55,486 nucleotides of DNA from assembly GCA_041308645.1 (NCBI GenBank), contig JBFZBC010000013.1, forward strand, positions 1 to 55,486, written 5' to 3'. The position numbers were made by a program, and so were the translations under genes. Positions within the stretch are counted from its first letter, which is position 1; each line of letters begins with the position of its first letter. Source of the DNA: a bacterium (lineage in GTDB: Bacteria; Patescibacteriota; Minisyncoccia; Phycocordibacterales; GWA1-40-21). A model generated the notes under the pieces. The model made no database searches. It had not been told where the DNA came from and worked only from the letters and a program-made list of their open reading frames with translations. Below are positions 1,950-27,990 of this stretch, piece by piece.

Positions 1950-3707
1950 TTATTCTGAAATTACTCGCAAAATCTCCTCAATGGTTGTTATGCCTTGAGC
2001 AGCCTTAAATAATCCGTCTTCCATCATACTCATCATCCCCTCTTTTTTAGCTTGTGCATTTATAACATTATCAGCCTCTCCTTTTATTATAAGCTCTTTG
2101 ATAGTCTCCGATATCTTTAATACTTCATTAATACAAACACGTCCACTATATATATCTTCAGCTTCCACTGACTCCTTTGGTCTATAAAAAGGTATCGTCT
2201 CAATGGTATCTTTGTCTTCAATAATTTTCTCTTTTTTCAAAAAATGTAAAACCCTATCTAAATCTATAATTCTAGCCAGGGAAGTTATTTCTGATTTAGA
2301 TAACAAATATTTTTCTGTATTTTTATTTAATTTTCTAACCAACCTTTGGGCTATAACTACTTTAATAGTAGAAACAAGCAGAAAAGGCTCAATCTTCATA
2401 TCAATTAACCTTGGCATCGCTCCCGCCGCAGAGTTTGTGTGTAAAGTGGAAAGCACAAGATGTCCCGTCAAAGCAGCATTGATAGCGAGAGAGGCTGTCT
2501 CATTATCACGGATTTCCCCAACCATAATTATATCTGGATCTTGACGGACAAGGGAGCGAAGACCGTTCGCAAAAGAAAGACCGATTTCAGGTTTTACTTG
2601 AGTTTGATTTATCCTATTCATCTGATATTCTACCGGGTCCTCAATTGTAGAAATATTAACACCGGGGGTATTAAGAACATCTAATAAAGTATATAAGGTG
2701 GTTGTTTTTCCCGAGCCAGTTGGACCAGTGATTAGAATCAGGCCAGTTGTTTGTCTGACTGACTCATGTAAAATTTCTAGAGAGTCTCCGTGAAAACCCA
2801 TCATTTCAAGGGTAAAACCAGAAGCGCTCTCCCTAAGTAATCTTAGGACAACCTTCTCTCCATAATATATAGGTAGAATAGAAACACGGAAAGAGACATC
2901 CTCATCATTTACTTTTATTTTAAATCGTCCGTCTTGTGGTAAACGTCTTTCATCAAGTTTTAGGTTCGCTAAAACTTTTATTCTAGCGACAATACTAGAT
3001 GCAATGCTTTTAGGTAAAATCATGGCATCATGGAGAATACCATCAATCCGATACCTGATTAACAATTCGCCTTCTAGAACTTCTATGTGAATATCTGAGG
3101 CATTTTGAGTGATGGCATGTTTTAATAAAGTATCTAAAATCCTTATGACTGGCAAATCCTCAGCCAACTTTTTCAAATCCCCTTCTACACTAATGTTACC
3201 TTGGCCTTCAATAATATTTGATAAAGCGGCAGCATCTTTTTTTATAATATCACCAAACTCATCTCGCAAACTTTTCTGATACTGGAGAAGAGCACTTTTG
3301 ATAGAGTCACTATCAGTTAGGCGAAGTAATATTCTCAAATCAACTTTCTTTTTAATAAATTCAATAGCTGAAAGATCTTTTGTATCAAGCATTGCTACTT
3401 CTAAAGCATCACCCGACTTTCTAAAAGCAATGGCATTGTGCTTTCTAGCTATTGGCTCGGGGATAAGAGAGAGAACATTTAAATCAATCTTCTGATCTTT
3501 CAAACTGACATAGGGAATACCAAAGACATAAGCTTCTGCTCGTCTATAATCATTTTCGCTAATCCTACCGCTATTTACAAGAACATTACCAACTTTTAAT
3601 TTACTTTTACTTTCTGAAGATTCTTTTAAAGCACGGCTGTAATCAGACTCAGTTATTAAACCAGAATCAATTAAGAACTCTTTCAATTGCTTTTCCTGAA
3701 CAATCAT
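1950..3707 (-). CDS. pilB: Type IV pilus assembly ATPase PilB (GspE family) with N-terminal T2SSE_N/MshEN-like domain
   Basis: Walker A is GPTGSGKTTTLY. Asp box / Walker B is DPDIIMVGEIRD, and the His box is GHLVLSTLHTN. 585 aa. Confidence 0.95.
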   Translation of the reverse strand: MIVQEKQLKEFLIDSGLITESDYSRALKESSESKSKLKVGNVLVNSGRISENDYRRAEAYVFGIPYVSLKDQKIDLNVLSLIPEPIARKHNAIAFRKSGDALEVAMLDTKDLSAIEFIKKKVDLRILLRLTDSDSIKSALLQYQKSLRDEFGDIIKKDAAALSNIIEGQGNISVEGDLKKLAEDLPVIRILDTLLKHAITQNASDIHIEVLEGELLIRYRIDGILHDAMILPKSIASSIVARIKVLANLKLDERRLPQDGRFKIKVNDEDVSFRVSILPIYYGEKVVLRLLRESASGFTLEMMGFHGDSLEILHESVRQTTGLILITGPTGSGKTTTLYTLLDVLNTPGVNISTIEDPVEYQMNRINQTQVKPEIGLSFANGLRSLVRQDPDIIMVGEIRDNETASLAINAALTGHLVLSTLHTNSAAGAMPRLIDMKIEPFLLVSTIKVVIAQRLVRKLNKNTEKYLLSKSEITSLARIIDLDRVLHFLKKEKIIEDKDTIETIPFYRPKESVEAEDIYSGRVCINEVLKISETIKELIIKGEADNVINAQAKKEGMMSMMEDGLFKAAQGITTIEEILRVISE

Positions 3708-13276: not shown

Positions 13277-13381
13277 TTTAATAATCACTACTGTTAAAAA
13301 GCTTACCCTGTAGTGAAAATTCTTATTTTCTAATACTGGGTTTTTGAGTGGCTAGAGAATCAAAAATAAAAAAATAAATTT

Positions 13382-13418
13382 AAAAATAGCCGGTTCCTTT
13401 CAGAAACCGGCTATTTTT
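13382..13418. terminator. Bidirectional intrinsic terminator shared by tig (+) and the Cas2-like gene (-)
   Basis: AAAAA-TAGCCGGTT-cctttcaga-AACCGGCTA-TTTTT. Confidence 0.8.
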
Positions 13419-13498
13419 ACCTGGCTCTTTTCCACTTAGTTCCTCGCCTTATAACTTATTCTTAGTAAATATCATCCCCCAATATTATCATATATAAT

Positions 13499-13530
13499 AT
13501 TAAAACTTTCACCTAGGTGAAAGTTTTAAT
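13499..13530. repeat. 32-bp perfect palindrome, downstream copy of cassette 1
   Basis: ATTAAAACTTTCACCT|AGGTGAAAGTTTTAAT. It lies 24 nt beyond the stop of 13555..13944 and before the terminator. Confidence 0.95.
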
Positions 13531-13554
13531 TGATTAATTTATTTACACATAATT

Positions 13555-13944
13555 TTATTGAATATATTTGTGATTTTTCGAATAAGGTTTAGCTAGTTTT
13601 AATATATTTAATTTATTTAAAAAACCAATAGATTCAGCATAGTTGATAAATTCTTTTGGTAATGGTGAAGGACCCACCCAAACACCTTTTTGAATCATCG
13701 AGTAATTAAATCCTTTCAACTGGTACCTTAACCAGTCCCTCTCGCTCCTCTTGTTTGAGGGTATATCAAACATTACAATAGTATCCATTGGTAATGAGAT
13801 AGAAAAATTAAAATCAAAGTGCTTATACTCTGAATATTTTCTCTGAGTATTTTTAAATTTTTTCTTCTTATTCGTATTTGAAACAAGTATCGGTAAGCCA
13901 AAAGCATTAACTGCGACTCCCTTATATTTTAAATATTTTTTCAT
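13555..13944 (-). CDS. Cas2-like / PaaX-middle-domain-like small protein (paralog 1)
   Basis: TIVMFDIPSNKRSERDWLRYQLKGFNYSMIQKGVWVGPSPLP fits the DIP-x6-R...L-x3-GF...Q-x-(S/G)VWV-x-P pattern of the Cas2-like fold. The N-terminus is Lys-rich and there is no wHTH. It is a paralog of 20634..21017. Confidence 0.6.
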   Translation of the reverse strand: MKKYLKYKGVAVNAFGLPILVSNTNKKKKFKNTQRKYSEYKHFDFNFSISLPMDTIVMFDIPSNKRSERDWLRYQLKGFNYSMIQKGVWVGPSPLPKEFINYAESIGFLNKLNILKLAKPYSKNHKYIQ

Positions 13945-13950
13945 TCTTTA

Positions 13951-13959
13951 ATTATATCA
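13951..13959 (-). promoter_or_regulatory. Extended -10 (TGATATAAT) plus 6 nt plus ATG: leaderless promoter of paralog 1
   Basis: The minus strand reads GTGATATAAT-TAAAGA-ATG. Confidence 0.6.
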
Positions 13960-13967
13960 CAAAAATA

Positions 13968-13991
13968 AAACTTTCACCTAGGTGAAAGTTT
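13968..13991. repeat. 24-bp perfect palindrome, upstream (operator-position) copy of cassette 1
   Basis: AAACTTTCACCT|AGGTGAAAGTTT, the same core as 13499-13530. Its centre is 35.5 bp upstream of the ATG. Confidence 0.95.
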
Positions 13992-16310: not shown

Positions 16311-16886
16311 ATGATAAAAGAAACAAAACAATTATTAGTTCAAAAAAATACTCAAAACGTGACCGGACTTCACCCAGAAATATTTGGTGATTTTAGTAAC
16401 ATTAAGGGTGATATCTCAAAAATAAAAGGTAATGTTAATATACACAAAATAAAAGGTGATGCTTCTAAAATTTCTGGTCAAATAAATGGTGTCTCTGGTG
16501 AAGTCTCAAATATTTCTGGTGATGTTAGTGATATTATTGGTGACACTTCAAATATTCGAGGGTTTATATCGCCTATCTCTGGTGATATCAGTGGTATTAC
16601 TGGTGATGTCTCAAATATCTCTGGTGATGTGACAAAAATACGTGGTAATGTTAGTAAAATTTCTGGTGATGTCTCAAATATAATTGGCGATGTCGCTGAT
16701 CTATCTGGTGATGTCAGTAAACTTAGTGGAAACATAACCCGCCTCGAGGGTTATGTCAGTAATATTTCTGGTTTTGTTACAAACATCACCGGTGATGTAA
16801 CAAATATTTTTGGTGATGTGACTGGACTTGAAGGTGATGCTACAGGTATCTCTGGTGATATCAGAGAATTATTAAAAAAGAAGTAA
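16311..16886 (+). CDS. Heptapeptide-repeat protein (23 x G-D/N-V/I-S/T-x-I/L-x), no signal peptide
   Basis: After a 25-aa head, the whole protein is GDFSNIK GDISKIK ... GDVSNIS ... GDATGIS GDIRELL, followed by KKK. Confidence 0.8.
   Translation: MIKETKQLLVQKNTQNVTGLHPEIFGDFSNIKGDISKIKGNVNIHKIKGDASKISGQINGVSGEVSNISGDVSDIIGDTSNIRGFISPISGDISGITGDVSNISGDVTKIRGNVSKISGDVSNIIGDVADLSGDVSKLSGNITRLEGYVSNISGFVTNITGDVTNIFGDVTGLEGDATGISGDIRELLKKK
16386..16874 (+). repeat. Imperfect 21-bp tandem repeat array (coding, 23 units)
   Basis: Units resemble ATTTCTGGTGATGTCTCAAAT. One unit is 27 bp. The antisense track ORFs here are artefacts of the repeat. Confidence 0.9.
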
Positions 16887-20497: not shown

Positions 20498-20538
20498 AAA
20501 AAAAAAGCAACCTTCCGGGTCAGAACCCAAAAGGTTGC
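20498..20538 (-). terminator. Intrinsic terminator of Cas2-like paralog 2
   Basis: The minus strand reads GCAACCTT-16 nt-AAGGTTGC followed by T9. Confidence 0.8.
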
Positions 20539-20590: not shown

Positions 20591-20606
20591 ATACGCCATG
20601 GCGTAT
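20591..20606. repeat. 16-bp perfect palindrome, downstream copy of cassette 2
   Basis: ATACGCCA|TGGCGTAT. It lies 27 nt beyond the stop of 20634..21017 and before the terminator. Confidence 0.95.
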
Positions 20607-20633
20607 TTAATTCATACAAATACAATAATATTT

Positions 20634-21017
20634 CTACAGATTTTTTTCTTCTTTTGAATATGGTTTGGCTAGTTTTAGAGTTCGTAACTGATCTAAAAGA
20701 CCAATAGATTTTATGTATGCAAGAAAATCTATTGGCAGTGGTGAAGGTCCGACCCAGACGCTTTTTTGAATCATAATATAGTCAAACTTTTTCAGCTGTC
20801 GGAGAAGCCATTCCCTTTCACTTCTTTTGTCATAAGGGATATCGTACATCACAATCAGATCTTTTGGTGAAGTATTTGCAAAATTAAAATCAAAGCACTT
20901 ATGGAAAGAATAACTCCGTTTTGGTGTCGATGCTAGATTTTTCTTTTTATCAGAATTAAATATAGGCAAACCAAGAGCATTAACAATCACTCCTTTATAT
21001 TTAAAATGTTTCCTCAT
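20634..21017 (-). CDS. Cas2-like / PaaX-middle-domain-like small protein (paralog 2)
   Basis: LIVMYDIPYDKRSEREWLLRQLKKFDYIMIQKSVWVGPSPLP. More than half of the positions are identical to 13555..13944 by eye, including the N-terminal KYKGV-VNA-GLPI and the C-terminal LKLAKPYSK. Confidence 0.6.
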   Translation of the reverse strand: MRKHFKYKGVIVNALGLPIFNSDKKKNLASTPKRSYSFHKCFDFNFANTSPKDLIVMYDIPYDKRSEREWLLRQLKKFDYIMIQKSVWVGPSPLPIDFLAYIKSIGLLDQLRTLKLAKPYSKEEKNL

Positions 21018-21023
21018 CTTTCG

Positions 21024-21032
21024 ATTATATCA
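21024..21032 (-). promoter_or_regulatory. Extended -10 (TGATATAAT) plus 6 nt plus ATG: leaderless promoter of paralog 2
   Basis: The minus strand reads GTGATATAAT-CGAAAG-ATG. Confidence 0.6.
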
Positions 21033-21044
21033 CTCTCCATTAAA

Positions 21045-21060
21045 ATACGCCATGGCGTAT
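21045..21060. repeat. 16-bp perfect palindrome, upstream (operator-position) copy of cassette 2
   Basis: ATACGCCA|TGGCGTAT. Its centre is 35.5 bp upstream of the ATG, the same spacing as cassette 1. Confidence 0.95.
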
Positions 21061-21115: not shown

Positions 21116-21817
21116 TTAATATTTTTCTACCCTTACTCGTTTTATACTATAGGCTAAGCTGGAGATACCAAACTTTTGACCTATTTCTTCAGCGAGTTGG
21201 CGCATATAGACGCCGGAGGAGGAATGGATTTTGAATTTTATAATTAAATACTTACTTTCTTTTTTATTTAGAGCTTTTTTCCACCGAGCCAGAATTTTAG
21301 ACTGGCGGAAATCACCATTTACCAAGGCGATTCTTTTTTGAATATTTTTTAATAAGTTTTGATTAGTAATATATTTATTACTAATATATTTGAATGATTT
21401 TATCTCCCCTTCTTTTTCTTGAATCTTGGCTTTGGCCAAAGCCGGTGAAGAATATTTTGGATATGGACGGGTTTTAGTTCCGATAAAATCATTCAGACTT
21501 TTCCTGATTTCATCTACTTTTAAATCCGTTCTTTTTTGTCCAGCAACTAAACCGAGCGCGTCTCCCGTATCTGTCGCAAAACCAAATAAAACTTCCACTT
21601 CATATTCTTTATCCAAATTTAAATATTTATCTTTCTTTTTACACTCTTCTCCGACTAAAACAATTAAAACACCTGAGGCTAGTGGATCTAGGCGCCCAGC
21701 ATATGTCATCTTTTCCTTTTTATATTCAGGATTATCCACCTTGAAACGATTAATACATTCCAAAGGAGTTTCCCCCACCTTTTTATCCAAATTTATAACT
21801 GCTTGTTTCTGACTCAT
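21116..21817 (-). CDS. truB: tRNA pseudouridine(55) synthase TruB (short form, no PUA domain)
   Basis: The catalytic motif YAGRLDPLASGVLIV is present. Start set at ATG 21817 (MSQKQAV); the track ORF uses an upstream TTG. Confidence 0.8.
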   Translation of the reverse strand: MSQKQAVINLDKKVGETPLECINRFKVDNPEYKKEKMTYAGRLDPLASGVLIVLVGEECKKKDKYLNLDKEYEVEVLFGFATDTGDALGLVAGQKRTDLKVDEIRKSLNDFIGTKTRPYPKYSSPALAKAKIQEKEGEIKSFKYISNKYITNQNLLKNIQKRIALVNGDFRQSKILARWKKALNKKESKYLIIKFKIHSSSGVYMRQLAEEIGQKFGISSLAYSIKRVRVEKY

Positions 21818-25024: not shown

Positions 25025-27990
25025 TAATTTTTCATTATTTCACGCAAAGCACAGTACTCGCATTTCTTATCATCACATTTTTTATTCCAAAAATCAAAGC
25101 GAGCAATCGCTGTCGCTGTTTGGCCAATCAAATCCAAGACTTCCTTTTCATCTTCAACACTAATATCAAAACTCTCTTTTTTATAATCATCTTTATCATT
25201 TGGTTCAATAAAATCTATTTCACCAGTTTTCATTTGATACTTACCTTTCTCATATTTATCCAATAAAATTTTATAGAAAATCAATTGTCTTTTATAATTA
25301 CCGTCATCATTTTTGGTTTTACCTTCAATGGCATTTCTTGACATCGGTTTTTTAGTTTTATAGTCAACCACTGTAACTCCACCGTCATCCTGGATTTCAA
25401 TTTTATCTAGCTGACCTTTCAATAAAATTTTATCTTCATCTTCCACTTTCTCAGATAAATCTGTGTAAACACCCACAATATTAAATTCATTGATCACCGA
25501 ACGTGCCCAGGTGCCGTTGTAAGTATCAAAATAACCCTTTAGGGCAGTTTGGCCTTTTACCAGTGTTTCGATATAATCTTTTTCATTAATTGGTTGTTTT
25601 GCTAAATATTTTTGGAATAGGTCTAAAAGCTCTTGCTGATTTAGATCATCACCATCACGATACTTATCGAAAAAATGTTTAAGCGTTTGATGAATGGCTG
25701 TTCCATACATTTGATGTTTTGATAAGACTTGAGGCAGACGAACGAGATTACAAAAAAAATACCGCCAAGGACAGACTAGAAAATTATTCAGGGCAGTAAC
25801 TGATAACCCTTGATCAAAAAATAGTCGACGTAAATAATCGCGATCCTTGATATTCTTAGCTTTGGCTGTTGAAACTGAAAAGTCTTCTAATTGATCAACT
25901 TCAAGCTTAGTCTCATTAACCTTAATCAAACTTGATTCAATCTCACCTAAAAACTGCGACGGTAAAAGAGCTTTACCATCTTCGGCTAATTTAGAATATG
26001 TGAGAACGACATGCTTTCGAGCTCGAGTTAAAGCAACATAAAACAATCTTCTTTCATCTTCAATCGCATCATAACTCAAAATATCAACATTGGAGATTGG
26101 TAATTTAAATTTATGCATATCCCTTTTATTACCCCAATGACCGTCAACTAGGTTTATGATGTAAATATAATCAAACTCCAAACCCTTACTCTTATGAGCA
26201 GTCATTAAGTGAACAGATTTTTCCGATAAGGTTTTACCTCGAGTTTTAATAACAATATTGTGCTTTTCTAAAACATCCAGATAACTAATAAAATCTTCTA
26301 AGCGATAATTTCGATGAGTACTAATTAACTCTTTCATCTGGTTCATCAACTTGTCTAATTTAGCTAATTTTTCAATCGATTCACTGCTCACCAGTAAATG
26401 TTTAAGAAAACCAGATTCATTGACTATGGCTTCAAAAAAGTCTAAGAGACCTATATTTTTAGCTTGCTTGCTCCATTTCGTTAAAAGACTTGATAGATCA
26501 TAAAAAACTTCAGAGTCATGCAGGGCGTCTAAAATAGAGACCTTTTTTTCTTTAGCTAGAGCAATAATCTTATAAACATCAACATAATCTAAATTTAAAT
26601 AATCAATAAACAAGGCTCGAGATAAAATTTCACTAGCACCCAAATCATTAATTGCTCGCATTAATAAAATCATTTTTCCAATATCACTATCAGAAAAAAG
26701 ATCTTGATCAGACTCAATAGTAAAGGAAATGCCTAATTTTTCCAAGGATCGAGCAATAGCTGAAGCGTCGCGATTCTCTCGATATAAAATTGCGATTTCA
26801 CTTAGATTTACACCCTGCTTAATTTTCTCATTAATACTTTCAGCTATAAATTTAAACTCACTTTTAGCTTTGTCGAAAGTATATAAATCAATTGGCACGT
26901 TTTGATGATTACTTTGAGCTTGAAGTTTGACTTGTAAATCCTTACCACTAGTATTCTTATCAATCAGAGAATGCGAAGCATCTAAAATAGACTGCGAGGA
27001 ACGATAATTATCAGTCAGGTAAATGAGTGCCGCTGTTGGGTAAATCTTTTTGAAATAGAGAAAGTTTTCTAATGATGCTCCTTGAAAACGAAAGATGGCT
27101 TGTTTTTCATCACCAACAATAAAAATATTTGGGTTTTCATGAAAACCAGAAATCAGTTCTAGTATTTTATTCTGGGAGTTATTGGCATCTTGATGCTCGT
27201 CAGCTAAAACATACTGATATTTTTCCTGAAGTTGTAAAAGTAAATCTTTGTTTGACTGTAGGGCCTTAATAACTTCAAGAATCATGTCTTGATAGTCATA
27301 CAATCTTTTTGTTTCTAGAGCTTTTTCATACTGAGTATAAATCTTTTGTAATTCTAGATTTTTAGCATTATTTTTTTCCAAATCTTTATACTTACCTTTC
27401 ATTTCACCTTGGTACTTTCCTTTATCATGATAGAGATCTGGTATGAGTTCAAAATTGCTGATTTGTTTTTTCAAAATCTCGAGCAAATCACTTGGGCTTA
27501 TATTTTCCTGCTTAAGATTATTTATTTCAGAAATAATCGAACGGATATAATGATAAGTATCACCATATGGTTTTAAAATTTCTAATTTAGTTTGATCAAT
27601 GATTTCCTCTAAAATTTTAATTTGATCAATATCAGTGATATTTTGTGCCCCAATAATTCTTGGAAACTCTTCAGGGTAATTCTTGATGATATCATTACAG
27701 AAACCATGAAAAGTATAGATGTTAACTTTATAAGCTGAACTACCAATAATATCCGCCAACTTTTTACGCATTGAATAGACCCCTGATTCAGTAAAAGTGA
27801 GAGCTAAAATACTATCAGCACTAGTATCTGTTTTCTTTAAAATATTGGCGATGCGTAAGGTCAAAATCGAAGTCTTACCAGTTCCCGGTCCCGCTACTAC
27901 CATCACTGGTCCGTCTATCGCATCCACGGCCTCCCTTTGTTTGGGATTTAATTGCCTGTATTTAGCATCAAAAACATCATCTGCTTTCAT
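25024..27990 (-). CDS. UvrD/PcrA-type SF1 helicase fused to a C-terminal PD-(D/E)XK (Cas4/AddB-like) nuclease with a Cys cluster
   Basis: Walker A is VVAGPGTGKT. Motif II is VLADEHQD. Further helicase motifs: TAHKSKGLEF and YVALTRARK. In the C-terminus, CPWRYFF ... DKIE...VVDYKT ... C-x5-C-x2-C suggests a 4Fe-4S RecB-family nuclease. Confidence 0.88.
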   Translation of the reverse strand: MKADDVFDAKYRQLNPKQREAVDAIDGPVMVVAGPGTGKTSILTLRIANILKKTDTSADSILALTFTESGVYSMRKKLADIIGSSAYKVNIYTFHGFCNDIIKNYPEEFPRIIGAQNITDIDQIKILEEIIDQTKLEILKPYGDTYHYIRSIISEINNLKQENISPSDLLEILKKQISNFELIPDLYHDKGKYQGEMKGKYKDLEKNNAKNLELQKIYTQYEKALETKRLYDYQDMILEVIKALQSNKDLLLQLQEKYQYVLADEHQDANNSQNKILELISGFHENPNIFIVGDEKQAIFRFQGASLENFLYFKKIYPTAALIYLTDNYRSSQSILDASHSLIDKNTSGKDLQVKLQAQSNHQNVPIDLYTFDKAKSEFKFIAESINEKIKQGVNLSEIAILYRENRDASAIARSLEKLGISFTIESDQDLFSDSDIGKMILLMRAINDLGASEILSRALFIDYLNLDYVDVYKIIALAKEKKVSILDALHDSEVFYDLSSLLTKWSKQAKNIGLLDFFEAIVNESGFLKHLLVSSESIEKLAKLDKLMNQMKELISTHRNYRLEDFISYLDVLEKHNIVIKTRGKTLSEKSVHLMTAHKSKGLEFDYIYIINLVDGHWGNKRDMHKFKLPISNVDILSYDAIEDERRLFYVALTRARKHVVLTYSKLAEDGKALLPSQFLGEIESSLIKVNETKLEVDQLEDFSVSTAKAKNIKDRDYLRRLFFDQGLSVTALNNFLVCPWRYFFCNLVRLPQVLSKHQMYGTAIHQTLKHFFDKYRDGDDLNQQELLDLFQKYLAKQPINEKDYIETLVKGQTALKGYFDTYNGTWARSVINEFNIVGVYTDLSEKVEDEDKILLKGQLDKIEIQDDGGVTVVDYKTKKPMSRNAIEGKTKNDDGNYKRQLIFYKILLDKYEKGKYQMKTGEIDFIEPNDKDDYKKESFDISVEDEKEVLDLIGQTATAIARFDFWNKKCDDKKCEYCALREIMKN

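Follow-up and report, generated by a model that had tools for sequence, protein, structure and literature searches.

Small PaaX_M-domain genes of Patescibacteria bracketed by cognate palindromes that also occur as dispersed copies

Why should a gene for a protein of 129 amino acids, placed between two housekeeping genes of a patescibacterial genome, carry the same perfect palindrome on both sides? The window, i.e., the whole stretch of DNA analysed (55,486 bases), was searched in full for palindromes, CRISPR-like arrays, tRNA and Rfam families. The locus that raises the question, cassette 1, contains the following features, with the two palindrome copies denoted U (upstream) and D (downstream):

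13968..13991, no strand: upstream palindrome copy (U), a 24-bp perfect core made of AAACTTTCACCT and AGGTGAAAGTTT
13951..13960, minus strand: extended -10 element GTGATATAAT, recognised by TG-n-TATAAT conserved across 51 loci
13555..13944, minus strand: 129-aa ORF, from the ORF call and the PaaX_M match
13499..13530, no strand: downstream palindrome copy (D), ATTAAAACTTTCACCTAGGTGAAAGTTTTAAT, 32 bp, perfect
13381..13419, minus strand: intrinsic terminator hairpin, 18 pairs followed by a T-run

U is centred 35.5 bp upstream of the ATG, counted from its A. A leaderless mRNA is predicted, since just 6 nt (13945-13950) separate GTGATATAAT from the ATG and no Shine-Dalgarno sequence precedes it. 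D lies 24 nt 3' of the stop codon and ahead of the terminator, which closes the cassette transcript and is placed between the cassette and the convergent gene tig. With up to 3 mismatches permitted, a search of all 55,486 bases still finds the 24-mer exactly twice (0 of 100 shuffles matched), and the palindrome is the longest perfect one in the window. A preliminary description of the locus had given the ORF, both palindrome copies, the -10 element, the terminator and their spacing, all of which are present in the sequence; the flanking housekeeping genes that it named, tig and rsmE, agree with the domain matches (Trigger_N/C for the former, Methyltrans_RNA and PUA_4 for the latter). Its statement that neither a CRISPR array nor cas1 accompanies the gene also stands, in that no CRISPR-like array was detected within the 55-kb window and cas1 was not seen among the ten flanking genes scanned, which are housekeeping or unknown. 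The window likewise gave no match to tRNA or Rfam families, and no paa genes occur near cassette 1, whose neighbours are tig and rsmE.

The first part of an answer comes from the protein. Its residues 56-118 match PaaX_M (PF20803) with 47.4 bits against a cutoff of 24 (E=2e-12), and this Cas2-like domain is predicted to have a ferredoxin fold. The layout consists of a wHTH remnant with the pattern YKGxxVNxFGxP and a basic linker (aa 1-52), followed by PaaX_M (aa ~53-118). Models of Cas2 itself score below threshold (PF09827, 17.9 vs 23.8 bits; TIGR01573, 19.9 vs 24.5 bits), with matches that cover only the first ~40 residues of those models; some longer relatives of the protein pass the PF09827 threshold, and a search with defence-system models returned weak Cas2 matches only. 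The AF2 model is of moderate confidence (pLDDT 75.6, with residues 22-32 below 50) and shows the expected order of strands and helices (E55-59, H66-78, E82-85, E88-91, H97-105, E112-116). When the model is compared with known structures by Foldseek, Cas2 structures rank top, but weakly (E 0.03-0.3, TM 0.3-0.5), with VapD also among the top matches, and a search of solved-structure sequences gave one marginal match, the Sulfolobus protein 3exc (listed as RNase SSO8090). The PaaX_M or Cas2-like assignment proposed at the outset is supported by the PF20803 score together with these top-ranking, if weak, structural matches.

The absence of an intact wHTH domain and of an HUH motif, both suspected from the first reading of the sequence, is confirmed. 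No HTH domain matched the cassette 1 protein at E<=10, and alignment to relatives of ~160 aa indicates that the short form keeps only the first strand and one helix of the wHTH, having lost helix 1 in addition to the recognition helix and wing (~28 aa); in the ~160-aa relatives themselves the wHTH matches are sub-threshold only. The 129 residues contain no His-hydrophobic-His (the only histidines are H42 and H125), and Y1_Tnp, the model for IS200/IS605-type Y1 transposases, gave no match at E<=10. There is no match to PaaX_C either, and the protein stops ~10 aa past the PaaX_M match. The large wHTH+PaaX_M family to which the cassette 1 protein belongs, as a shortened form, comprises 1,755 clusters at 50% identity (E<=1e-3), mostly proteins of 155-195 aa; the relatives match PaaX_M too, and their genes are annotated as 'Cas2' or 'PaaX' in metagenome-assembled genomes.

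The window holds a second cassette of the same layout (20591-21060), with a palindrome of a different type:

21045..21060, no strand: upstream palindrome, ATACGCCA and TGGCGTAT, centred 35.5 bp before the ATG
21024..21033, minus strand: extended -10 element GTGATATAAT, followed by 6 nt and the ATG
20634..21017, minus strand: paralog of 127 aa that shares 61% identity with the protein of cassette 1
20591..20606, no strand: downstream palindrome, ATACGCCA and TGGCGTAT, 27 nt after the stop and ahead of the terminator
20507..20538, minus strand: intrinsic terminator, 14 pairs followed by T9

This paralog also matches PaaX_M (PF20803). The arrangement extends to the family at large: of 63 related loci, 59 have the gene enclosed by two cognate dyad elements of ~30 bp, with D found at -8 to +61 nt relative to the stop codon in all loci with one exception. 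Of 76 related loci, 51 have U centred 33-38 bp ahead of the ATG, where it covers the -35 position; across these 51 the U centre falls at -34..-37, TGnTATAAT is conserved at -16..-7 and no Shine-Dalgarno sequence is present. The leaderless promoter with a palindrome over its -35 region, first described for cassette 1 alone, is conserved in these loci. The longest word that the 5' flank has in common with the 3' flank is 15 nt at the median, compared to 8 nt in mismatched pairs of loci; strict family-type sites in 464 kb of sequence flank a cassette in 84 of 92 instances (shuffled sequences yielded 0 sites), and the bracket is present also in distant members of the family (L203, L206). The skeleton of the element is symmetric: counted from the centre towards either end, T at position 1, G at 3, A at 7 and T at 10 hardly vary, and no terminal tag such as a GTAG/CGTC tetranucleotide is present. 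Only some loci have perfect palindromes of much greater length (up to 46 bp). All-against-all clustering of ORFs in 80 loci gave no conserved partner gene, the neighbours being varied housekeeping genes; no integrase is linked to the cassettes, as judged from the scanned flanking genes and the same clustering; and no relative of the family was found in IMG/VR contigs that would indicate phage origin.

Both the symmetry of the element and the identity between U and D fade at about +/-15 bp, a decay that fits a dimer footprint. This bears on the proposal that the palindromes are mainly RNA hairpins, acting as stabilisers or terminators at 3' ends, with the protein as a hairpin binder or a Cas2/VapD-like RNase on transcripts. 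D is transcribed and predicted to form a hairpin of 14 pairs, many of the solo copies described below lie directly 3' of stop codons, and the W1-type element, with its A/T tracts, is terminator-like on both strands. Against this, U, upstream of the predicted transcription start and in several loci next to a divergent gene, would not have to be transcribed; the other types, including that of cassette 2, have no T-run; the symmetry generally ends with the shared ~30 bp; and relatives carry a wHTH, which is a module for binding double-stranded DNA. Beyond the shared core the symmetry is near chance by +/-17 bp, and selection for a hairpin alone is rejected. We consider the RNA reading quite improbable.

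The fixed geometry of operator and promoter and a dyad site of dimer size are what an ordinary autoregulated transcription factor would be expected to have, with an operator at the promoter, an auxiliary operator after the gene (as in lac O1/O2 looping), and scattered copies that serve as regulon or decoy sites and are not mobile. The placement of U is consistent with the operator part of this scheme, and U is a putative operator over the -35 position in the preferred reading as well. The U-D distances range from 387 to 567 bp without 10.5-bp periodicity (Rayleigh p~0.75), so phase-locked looping is rejected, and the looping operator pair contemplated in the preliminary description finds no positive support. 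Nor is D the operator of a second promoter, as no -10 element is conserved at any fixed offset after it.

Whether the element belongs to its gene can be judged from how element types are distributed. Types differ between paralogs within one genome, as they do between the two paralogs in the window, and where orthologous loci differ in type, U and D have switched jointly (CCTAGG, CCATGG, CTATAG). The type follows the paralog and its genomic context (rsmE-tig or rpsG-fusA), and the cassettes are therefore vertically inherited. The cassette is kept between rsmE and tig across genomes whose Tig is 56-87% identical to that of the window, which argues against the earlier suggestion that the gene cassette is a recently mobile unit. 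Protein-DNA covariation has its top couplings between residues ~27-46 and half-site positions 8-9, a signal confounded with phylogeny, and linkage or gene conversion, instead of protein specificity, could account for the identity of U and D and for their tracking with the paralog.

Vertical inheritance also weighs on the possibility that promoter and gene are cargo, integrated into a pre-existing palindrome with duplication of the target, much as a CRISPR repeat comes to surround a new spacer. The tightness of the bracket, with U at a fixed distance from the 5' end and D so near the stop codon, would fit such an origin, as would one locus (L140) where the same palindrome and promoter precede a different gene. 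The cassette positions are conserved over long divergence, however; loci selected by gene or by palindrome include no empty site with a single palindrome between rsmE and tig; and the cassettes lack a linked integrase. Such an origin seems to us highly improbable.

What sets the palindromes apart from ordinary operators is that they occur elsewhere. No solo copy is present in the window's 55 kb; the dispersal is seen in related genomes and metagenome contigs. Additional cognate copies are found near cassettes in related loci, and a perfect cognate copy lies inside the coding sequence of the cassette gene itself in L012, L018 and L020, with no insert in L015 and L016. Low-GC metagenome contigs contain 31 solo copies, most of them at stop codons, in the gap between two convergent genes, or in arrays of mixed type; the arrays at L081, L113, L127 and L171 combine 4-6 element types. 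In one contig (Ga0073936_10000139), a W1-type cassette (L131) is accompanied by a further W1-type copy, which belongs to an array (L113). The copies also enter genes in frame: TatD orthologues are 254 aa long when empty and 277-323 aa long when they carry the in-frame inserts NFHLGES, EVxHGxL or EIRHGVS, which are translated family-type palindromes. In the DNA itself, the insert is present at L141 and L201 and absent from L202; filled and empty alleles share 84% aa identity, and their junctions are too diverged to show a target-site duplication. The window has no TatD gene, and these in-frame insertions are those of relatives.

The dispersed copies also bear on the case for a plain transcription factor. 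The solo copy at L140, in cassette promoter geometry before a P-loop kinase-like ORF, is what a regulon site would look like, but a -10 element at the cassette offset accompanies only 2 of the 31 solo copies, at the background level of 6%, and the reading of solo copies as a regulon is rejected. The locations of most solo copies, at stop codons, between convergent genes or in mixed-type arrays, speak against it too, and perfect 27-nt copies inserted in frame, with empty sites in close orthologues, are impossible by point mutation. A plain transcription factor without mobile sites is in our view rather unlikely. The preliminary description had expected the palindrome to lose significance if it proved to be a scattered repeat without a link to the gene family; the palindromes are indeed scattered, but each type is tied to its cognate gene.

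The mobile, copy-pasted part is, as far as comparison of sequences indicates, the palindrome and not the gene cassette. The protein could itself carry out the copying or movement of its cognate palindromes, as a functional analogue of the RAYT transposase built on a Cas2-like nuclease fold. The anatomy is like that of REP-RAYT pairs, the palindromes are insertion-polymorphic, and D60, the Cas2-type Asp that ends strand 1 in 'FDIP', shows at least 90% conservation in A1 and does not vary in A3. On the other hand, D60 is replaced by Asn in some bracketed members (e.g., L008), HUH motif and Y1 transposase match are missing, no target-site duplication is resolved between the filled and empty TatD alleles, the copy number of the element appears low, and wHTH+PaaX_M is the architecture of a regulator. 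We hold this to be unlikely.

We instead consider it fairly probable that the cassette encodes a palindrome-binding, autoregulated protein paired with a low-copy palindrome family of the REP/RPE kind, following the logic of REP-RAYT with a protein that is not of the HUH type. The gene would produce a small sequence-specific DNA-binding protein, probably dimeric, that would recognise the ~30-bp dyad-symmetric element of its own type. We infer that its binding represses transcription: U, over the -35 of an extended -10 leaderless promoter, would most likely be the operator for negative autoregulation. D, just after the stop codon, may be a second binding site; it may allow cooperative binding, act on transcription as a roadblock or an insulator, or simply provide the second flank. 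The dispersed elements appear to behave like REP/RPE-type mobile palindromes because they are found at the 3' ends of genes, in arrays and in frame within genes, and are polymorphic between close orthologues; the protein may act at these copies as well, and the gene with its two flanking copies would be the cognate 'home' locus. What counts against this explanation is that the short form has no recognition helix and would still have a 30-bp site to read; the moderate structure model with its weak matches, the phylogeny behind the covariation, the lack of solo copies in the window, linkage or gene conversion as another source of U-D identity, and the unphased U-D spacing weigh against it too.

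A bolder version is conceivable, if still unlikely: that Patescibacteria hold a previously undescribed class of repeats and genes, in which families of ~30-bp perfect palindromes are propagated or maintained by cognate Cas2-fold wHTH+PaaX_M proteins without HUH transposases, the protein repressing itself at the flanking copy and catalysing or licensing the copying of palindromes to gene ends, arrays and coding loops. We found no paper that ties PaaX_M or Cas2-like proteins to flanking palindromes in Patescibacteria. If the pairing of palindromes with cognate genes holds up, the small reduced genomes of this group would possess mobile palindromes of their own together with the genes that match them, and the REP-RAYT arrangement would have been arrived at a second time, independently, with a regulator-like Cas2-fold protein. 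It would explain the recurrent misannotation of these genes as 'Cas2' or 'PaaX', account for the length variation of housekeeping proteins such as TatD, and provide dozens of natural orthogonal pairs of a protein and a 30-bp site for study of the evolution of specificity, among them the short form, which would read DNA with no recognition helix. The handling of palindromic repeats by a Cas2-like fold outside CRISPR would become testable, with a bearing on CRISPR origins.

Several known systems share part of this arrangement. The lac O1/O2 and gal OE/OI repressors also pair a promoter site with another cognate site located some hundreds of bp downstream, whereas here the second site lies past the stop codon at a variable distance, without helical phasing, and the sites also exist as mobile copies elsewhere. 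PaaX, the phenylacetyl-CoA-responsive repressor of paa genes, has the central Cas2-like domain that is matched significantly, the N-terminal wHTH seen in longer relatives, and palindromic sites at its own promoter; the cassettes differ in having no PaaX_C, no intact wHTH and no paa genes nearby, and the 'FDIP' Asp of the cassette protein is Cas2-like. Cas2 and VapD have the ferredoxin-like fold that is predicted for it and are among its top (weak) structural matches, and Cas2 also shares the conserved Asp that closes strand 1 and the association with palindromic repeats that flank an insert. Unlike true Cas2, the protein falls below the curated thresholds, aligns with the start of the models only, and has neither cas1 nor a CRISPR array beside it. 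Rickettsia palindromic elements (RPEs) are ~100-150 bp in size. Like these and other in-frame MITE-like inserts, the palindromes studied here occur in frame in housekeeping genes and are present or absent among orthologues, but their units are ~21-30 bp and a cognate protein gene is linked to every type (for RPEs see PMC10969869 and PMC1779305).

The closest comparison is with REP-RAYT systems (REPtrons; REPINs/BIMEs), where rayt genes are flanked by cognate REPs and duplication of RAYT accompanies diversification of the REPs (PMC3686654). The differences are as follows: RAYT is an HUH/Y1 transposase, whereas the protein here has a wHTH remnant and a Cas2-like PaaX_M domain; REPs have a GTAG/CGTC tag at the 5' end of the repeat, which is lacking here, where the elements are fully symmetric dyads of ~30 bp; and in the cassettes the copy number seems low, U is part of the gene's promoter at a fixed distance, and copies also occur in frame within genes. 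In both systems a single-copy gene has its cognate palindromic repeat on both sides, each paralog has its own class of repeat, with repeats diversifying as the gene duplicates (PMC3686654), and the gene's position is stable and vertically inherited. Extragenic copies at gene ends and in clusters, as REPs have them, are seen here in related contigs. The resemblance to REPtrons and RAYTs pointed out in the preliminary description has turned out to be its most useful lead, with cognate brackets, paralog-specific types and dispersed copies in relatives.

All the cassette 1 features claimed in the preliminary description (the ORF, the palindromes and their spacings) are present in the sequence exactly as described, and the identification of the neighbours as trigger factor (tig) and RsmE is borne out by Pfam. 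The 24-mer core of the palindrome has two sites only in the 55,486 bases with three mismatches allowed, and none in 100 shuffles. A tblastn search of the window with the cassette 1 protein revealed a 61%-identical paralog that forms a second cassette with a palindrome of its own; its upstream copy is also centred 35.5 bp before the ATG, and GTGATATAAT plus six bases again precede the start codon. Below, U denotes the upstream copy of a palindrome and D the copy near the stop codon.

Features of the two cassettes in the window
13381-13419, minus strand: cassette 1 terminator, 18 pairs, beyond D
13499-13530: cassette 1 D, perfect 32-bp palindrome, 24 nt past the stop
13555..13944, minus strand: cassette 1 ORF, 129 aa
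13951-13960, minus strand: cassette 1 promoter element GTGATATAAT, then six bases, then ATG
13968-13991: cassette 1 U, equal to the 24-bp core of D, centre 35.5 bp before the ATG
20507-20538: cassette 2 terminator, after D
20591-21060: cassette 2, whole unit
20591-20606: cassette 2 D, perfect palindrome ATACGCCATGGCGTAT, different from that of cassette 1
20634..21017, minus strand: cassette 2 ORF, 127 aa
21045-21060: cassette 2 U, ATACGCCATGGCGTAT

A search of the 55,486 bases for a CRISPR-like array, a tRNA or an Rfam family returned none, in line with the earlier statement that a CRISPR array is absent. Between the cassettes, a 191-aa ORF (16311-16886, plus strand) consists nearly entirely of 7-aa/21-nt repeats (GDVSNIS-like), for which Tandem Repeats Finder reports periods of 21 and 63.

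The likeness of the cassette 1 protein to Cas2 and the middle domain of PaaX was recovered by Pfam, which matches residues 56-118 with PaaX_M (47.4 bits, cutoff 24), the Cas2-like domain at the centre of PaaX; Cas2 models score just under their thresholds. In an AlphaFold model built with 32 homologues, with a pLDDT of 75.6, the elements run strand-helix-strand-strand-helix-strand as in the ferredoxin fold, and Cas2 and VapD come out as the best matches in the PDB, with weak statistics. The Cas2-type Asp D60 ("FDIP") is conserved, though a few members carry Asn there. Searching 1.84 billion representatives with a profile yielded 1,755 clusters at E<=1e-3, mostly of 155-195 aa, and these longer relatives have a winged-helix region N-terminal to the PaaX_M domain. 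In alignment with them the cassette 1 protein lacks the first helix and a block of ~28 residues matching the recognition helix and wing, and of its N-terminal part the conserved YKGxxVNxFGxP segment and a basic linker are all that remains. The original remark that there is no wHTH is thus correct in that an intact one is absent, but needs qualifying: the protein is a shortened descendant of a wHTH protein.

A word-indexed search found more than 300 homologues (315 at E<=1e-3), every one from MAGs and metagenomes; the family was absent from viral contigs, where it was also looked for. The 80 genome loci that we fetched belong without exception to MAGs of Patescibacteria (Paceibacteria, Nomurabacteria, Taylorbacteria and similar); each genome has several paralogs, and we saw no recurrent partner gene beside the cassettes. 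The longest word that the upstream flank (100 nt) and the downstream flank (120 nt) of the gene have in common has a median length of 15 nt, compared with 8 nt in mismatched locus pairs, and reaches at least 12 nt in 65% of loci and 7.5% of controls. Where a clear upstream palindrome exists, a cognate copy with at most 4 mismatches in 20 lies near the stop codon in 59 of 63 loci, at -8 to +61 nt relative to the stop with one exception. When sites are defined strictly, 464 kb contain 92 of the family type, 84 of them beside a cassette, and shuffled sequence contains none. Among three more distant relatives, L203 and L206 are bracketed likewise; L208 has the D copy and has lost its upstream flank at the contig end.

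The type of element tracks the paralog and its surroundings in the genome, with ACTTTC(A/G)C types after rsmE, ATTTACGCTATAGCGTA types after rpsG and ahead of fusA, and AAGTTCGCCATGGCGAACTT types beside topA or dprA. Among orthologous rsmE-linked loci the central bases shift jointly in U and D (CCTAGG, CCATGG, CTATAG). A gene that integrated into a palindrome and duplicated its target would also be bracketed, and we consider such an origin very improbable. The order rsmE-cassette-tig is conserved in at least 12 genomes, with 56-87% identity between their Tig proteins and that of the window. The cassettes are therefore vertically inherited, which goes against the suggestion of a selfish or mobile mini-cassette, at least as regards recent mobility of the gene unit. 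At five Nomurabacteria-type loci (L038, L063, L068, L045, L011), the promoters before fusA, downstream of the cassettes, combine TTGACA, a spacer with 7-9 consecutive G and TACACT/TATAAT, an unusual conserved G-tract.

Alignment of 51 loci on the ATG places TATAAT at -12..-7 with TG ahead of it and the centre of U at -34..-37, and shows no Shine-Dalgarno sequence. From this we predict a leaderless transcript and an extended -10 promoter whose -35 position is covered by U, as had been proposed for cassette 1. The strongest reason to think that U would act as an operator on duplex DNA is this constant geometry; a role of the palindromes as RNA hairpins seems improbable. When sites are aligned on their centres, a common skeleton emerges: counted outward, T at position 1, G at 3, A at 7 and T at 10 are near-invariant, and the bases between them vary by element type. 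Dyad symmetry and U-D identity both remain high out to about +/-15 bp and drop to chance level beyond it, an extent expected of a dimer footprint. That the protein is a plain transcription factor with an auxiliary operator we regard as unlikely.

Some copies are perfect palindromes of 40-46 bp (upstream in L016, L018, L035, L039 and L067, downstream in L025 and L073), whose outer arms are symmetric yet vary from one orthologous locus to another and from U to D within a locus; template switching that "perfects" palindromes may have produced them, or else a constraint on hairpins. Two more perfect 16-bp palindromes of the window, GGCTTTGGCCAAAGCC (21428-21443, inside the truB ORF) and GGTTTTCATGAAAACC (27132-27147), do not match the family skeleton.

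Dispersal and insertion polymorphism were seen in related genomes and metagenome contigs; the window's 55 kb hold the four flanking copies of the two cassettes and no further copy. In about ten loci a further cognate copy, the third, occurs no more than 3 kb away. When metagenomes were scanned for the rsmE-linked type, at least 120 stretches matched, with a cassette gene in only 11 of 120 among the matches listed; the high-GC matches are probably chance or unrelated. Also among the matches listed, at least 31 perfect copies in low-GC contigs have no cassette gene in the fetched stretch; such solo copies mostly adjoin stop codons or sit between convergent genes, and a -10 at the cassette offset accompanies only 2 of 31, which is background. 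Copy number per genome appears low, with about 5 solo copies over ~430 kb of sequence adjoining cassettes. Four loci contain intergenic arrays, 100-200 bp long, of four to six different family-type palindromes back to back (L113 5040-5240; L081 2270-2375; L127 1195-1320; L171 1120-1225), whose members are types that flank different paralogs, both window types included; several of the solo copies belong to such arrays. The arrays at L113 and L171 share a neighbouring promoter, ahead of an unknown 236-aa gene and pnp, yet differ in composition, and arrays therefore turn over. Downstream of rsmE in L140 (12985-13536), a palindrome of the rsmE-linked type and the same GTGATATAAT leaderless promoter precede a P-loop kinase-like ORF (MKKTFICLITGPAGSGKS...) in place of the PaaX_M gene; either the gene inside the bracket was replaced, or this ORF is a genuine second target.

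Copies also occur inside coding genes. In L012, L018 and L020 (~3080-3110) a perfect cognate AAGTTCGCCATGGCGAACTT copy forms a 27-nt in-frame insert (SEVRHGEL) within the cassette gene's own CDS, absent from the orthologues L015 and L016. In L141 an rsmE-linked-type element lies in frame within a TatD gene (insert regions ~597-616 and ~880-930). Related Paceibacteria have TatD orthologues (72-92% identity) whose length goes from 254 aa without insert up to 323 aa; the inserts share one loop, reading NFHLGES, NFHHGES, EVNHGSL or EIRHGVS, which are translated family-type palindromes. At the DNA level, the L201 TatD gene (300-450) carries four family-type units in one reading phase, one containing the cassette 2 core, and L202 is an empty allele. 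Across an alignment of TatD orthologues, palindromic in-frame inserts occur at a few loops and only some are cassette-type; others come from unrelated families of palindromes, such as CAAAGGCTTCGCC-TTTGAA-GGCGAAGCCTTTG (a clean 48-nt indel) and a unit encoding EQGLTLF.

We favour, as probable, a composite reading with which the alternatives partly overlap. Gene and palindrome would form a cognate pair, with two copies bracketing the gene and one wired into its promoter. In the most parsimonious mechanism, the protein, putatively as a dimer, would bind its own ~30-bp dyad, repress its leaderless promoter through U, and also occupy D and the dispersed copies, where candidate roles are a roadblock or insulator, palindrome protection, or catalysis of palindrome spread; further copies would spread by low-frequency copy-paste to the ends of genes, into arrays and into protein loops that tolerate them. 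We infer the protein-DNA specificity from element type tracking the paralog, a pattern that linkage could mimic. That the protein is a RAYT-like enzyme built on a Cas2 fold is possible but doubtful.

A full-text literature search found no description of the palindrome-gene-palindrome layout. By curated thresholds and context the cassette 1 protein is not a Cas2. Having PaaX_M without wHTH, PaaX_C domain or paa context, it is best described as a partial member of the PaaX family. The in-frame inserts resemble Rickettsia palindromic elements (PMC10969869, PMC1779305), from which they differ in being short and in that each type has a linked protein gene. The suggested likeness to REPtrons and RAYTs extends to layout and stops at enzymatic features: HUH motif, Y1 transposase match and GTAG/CGTC tag, which define REP-RAYT systems, were not found in the cassette protein or element, so the cassette falls outside that family. 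By analogy, REP-RAYT is nevertheless the closest known arrangement, with a gene flanked by cognate repeats, a repeat class of its own for each paralog, and repeats that diversify with gene duplication (PMC3686654).
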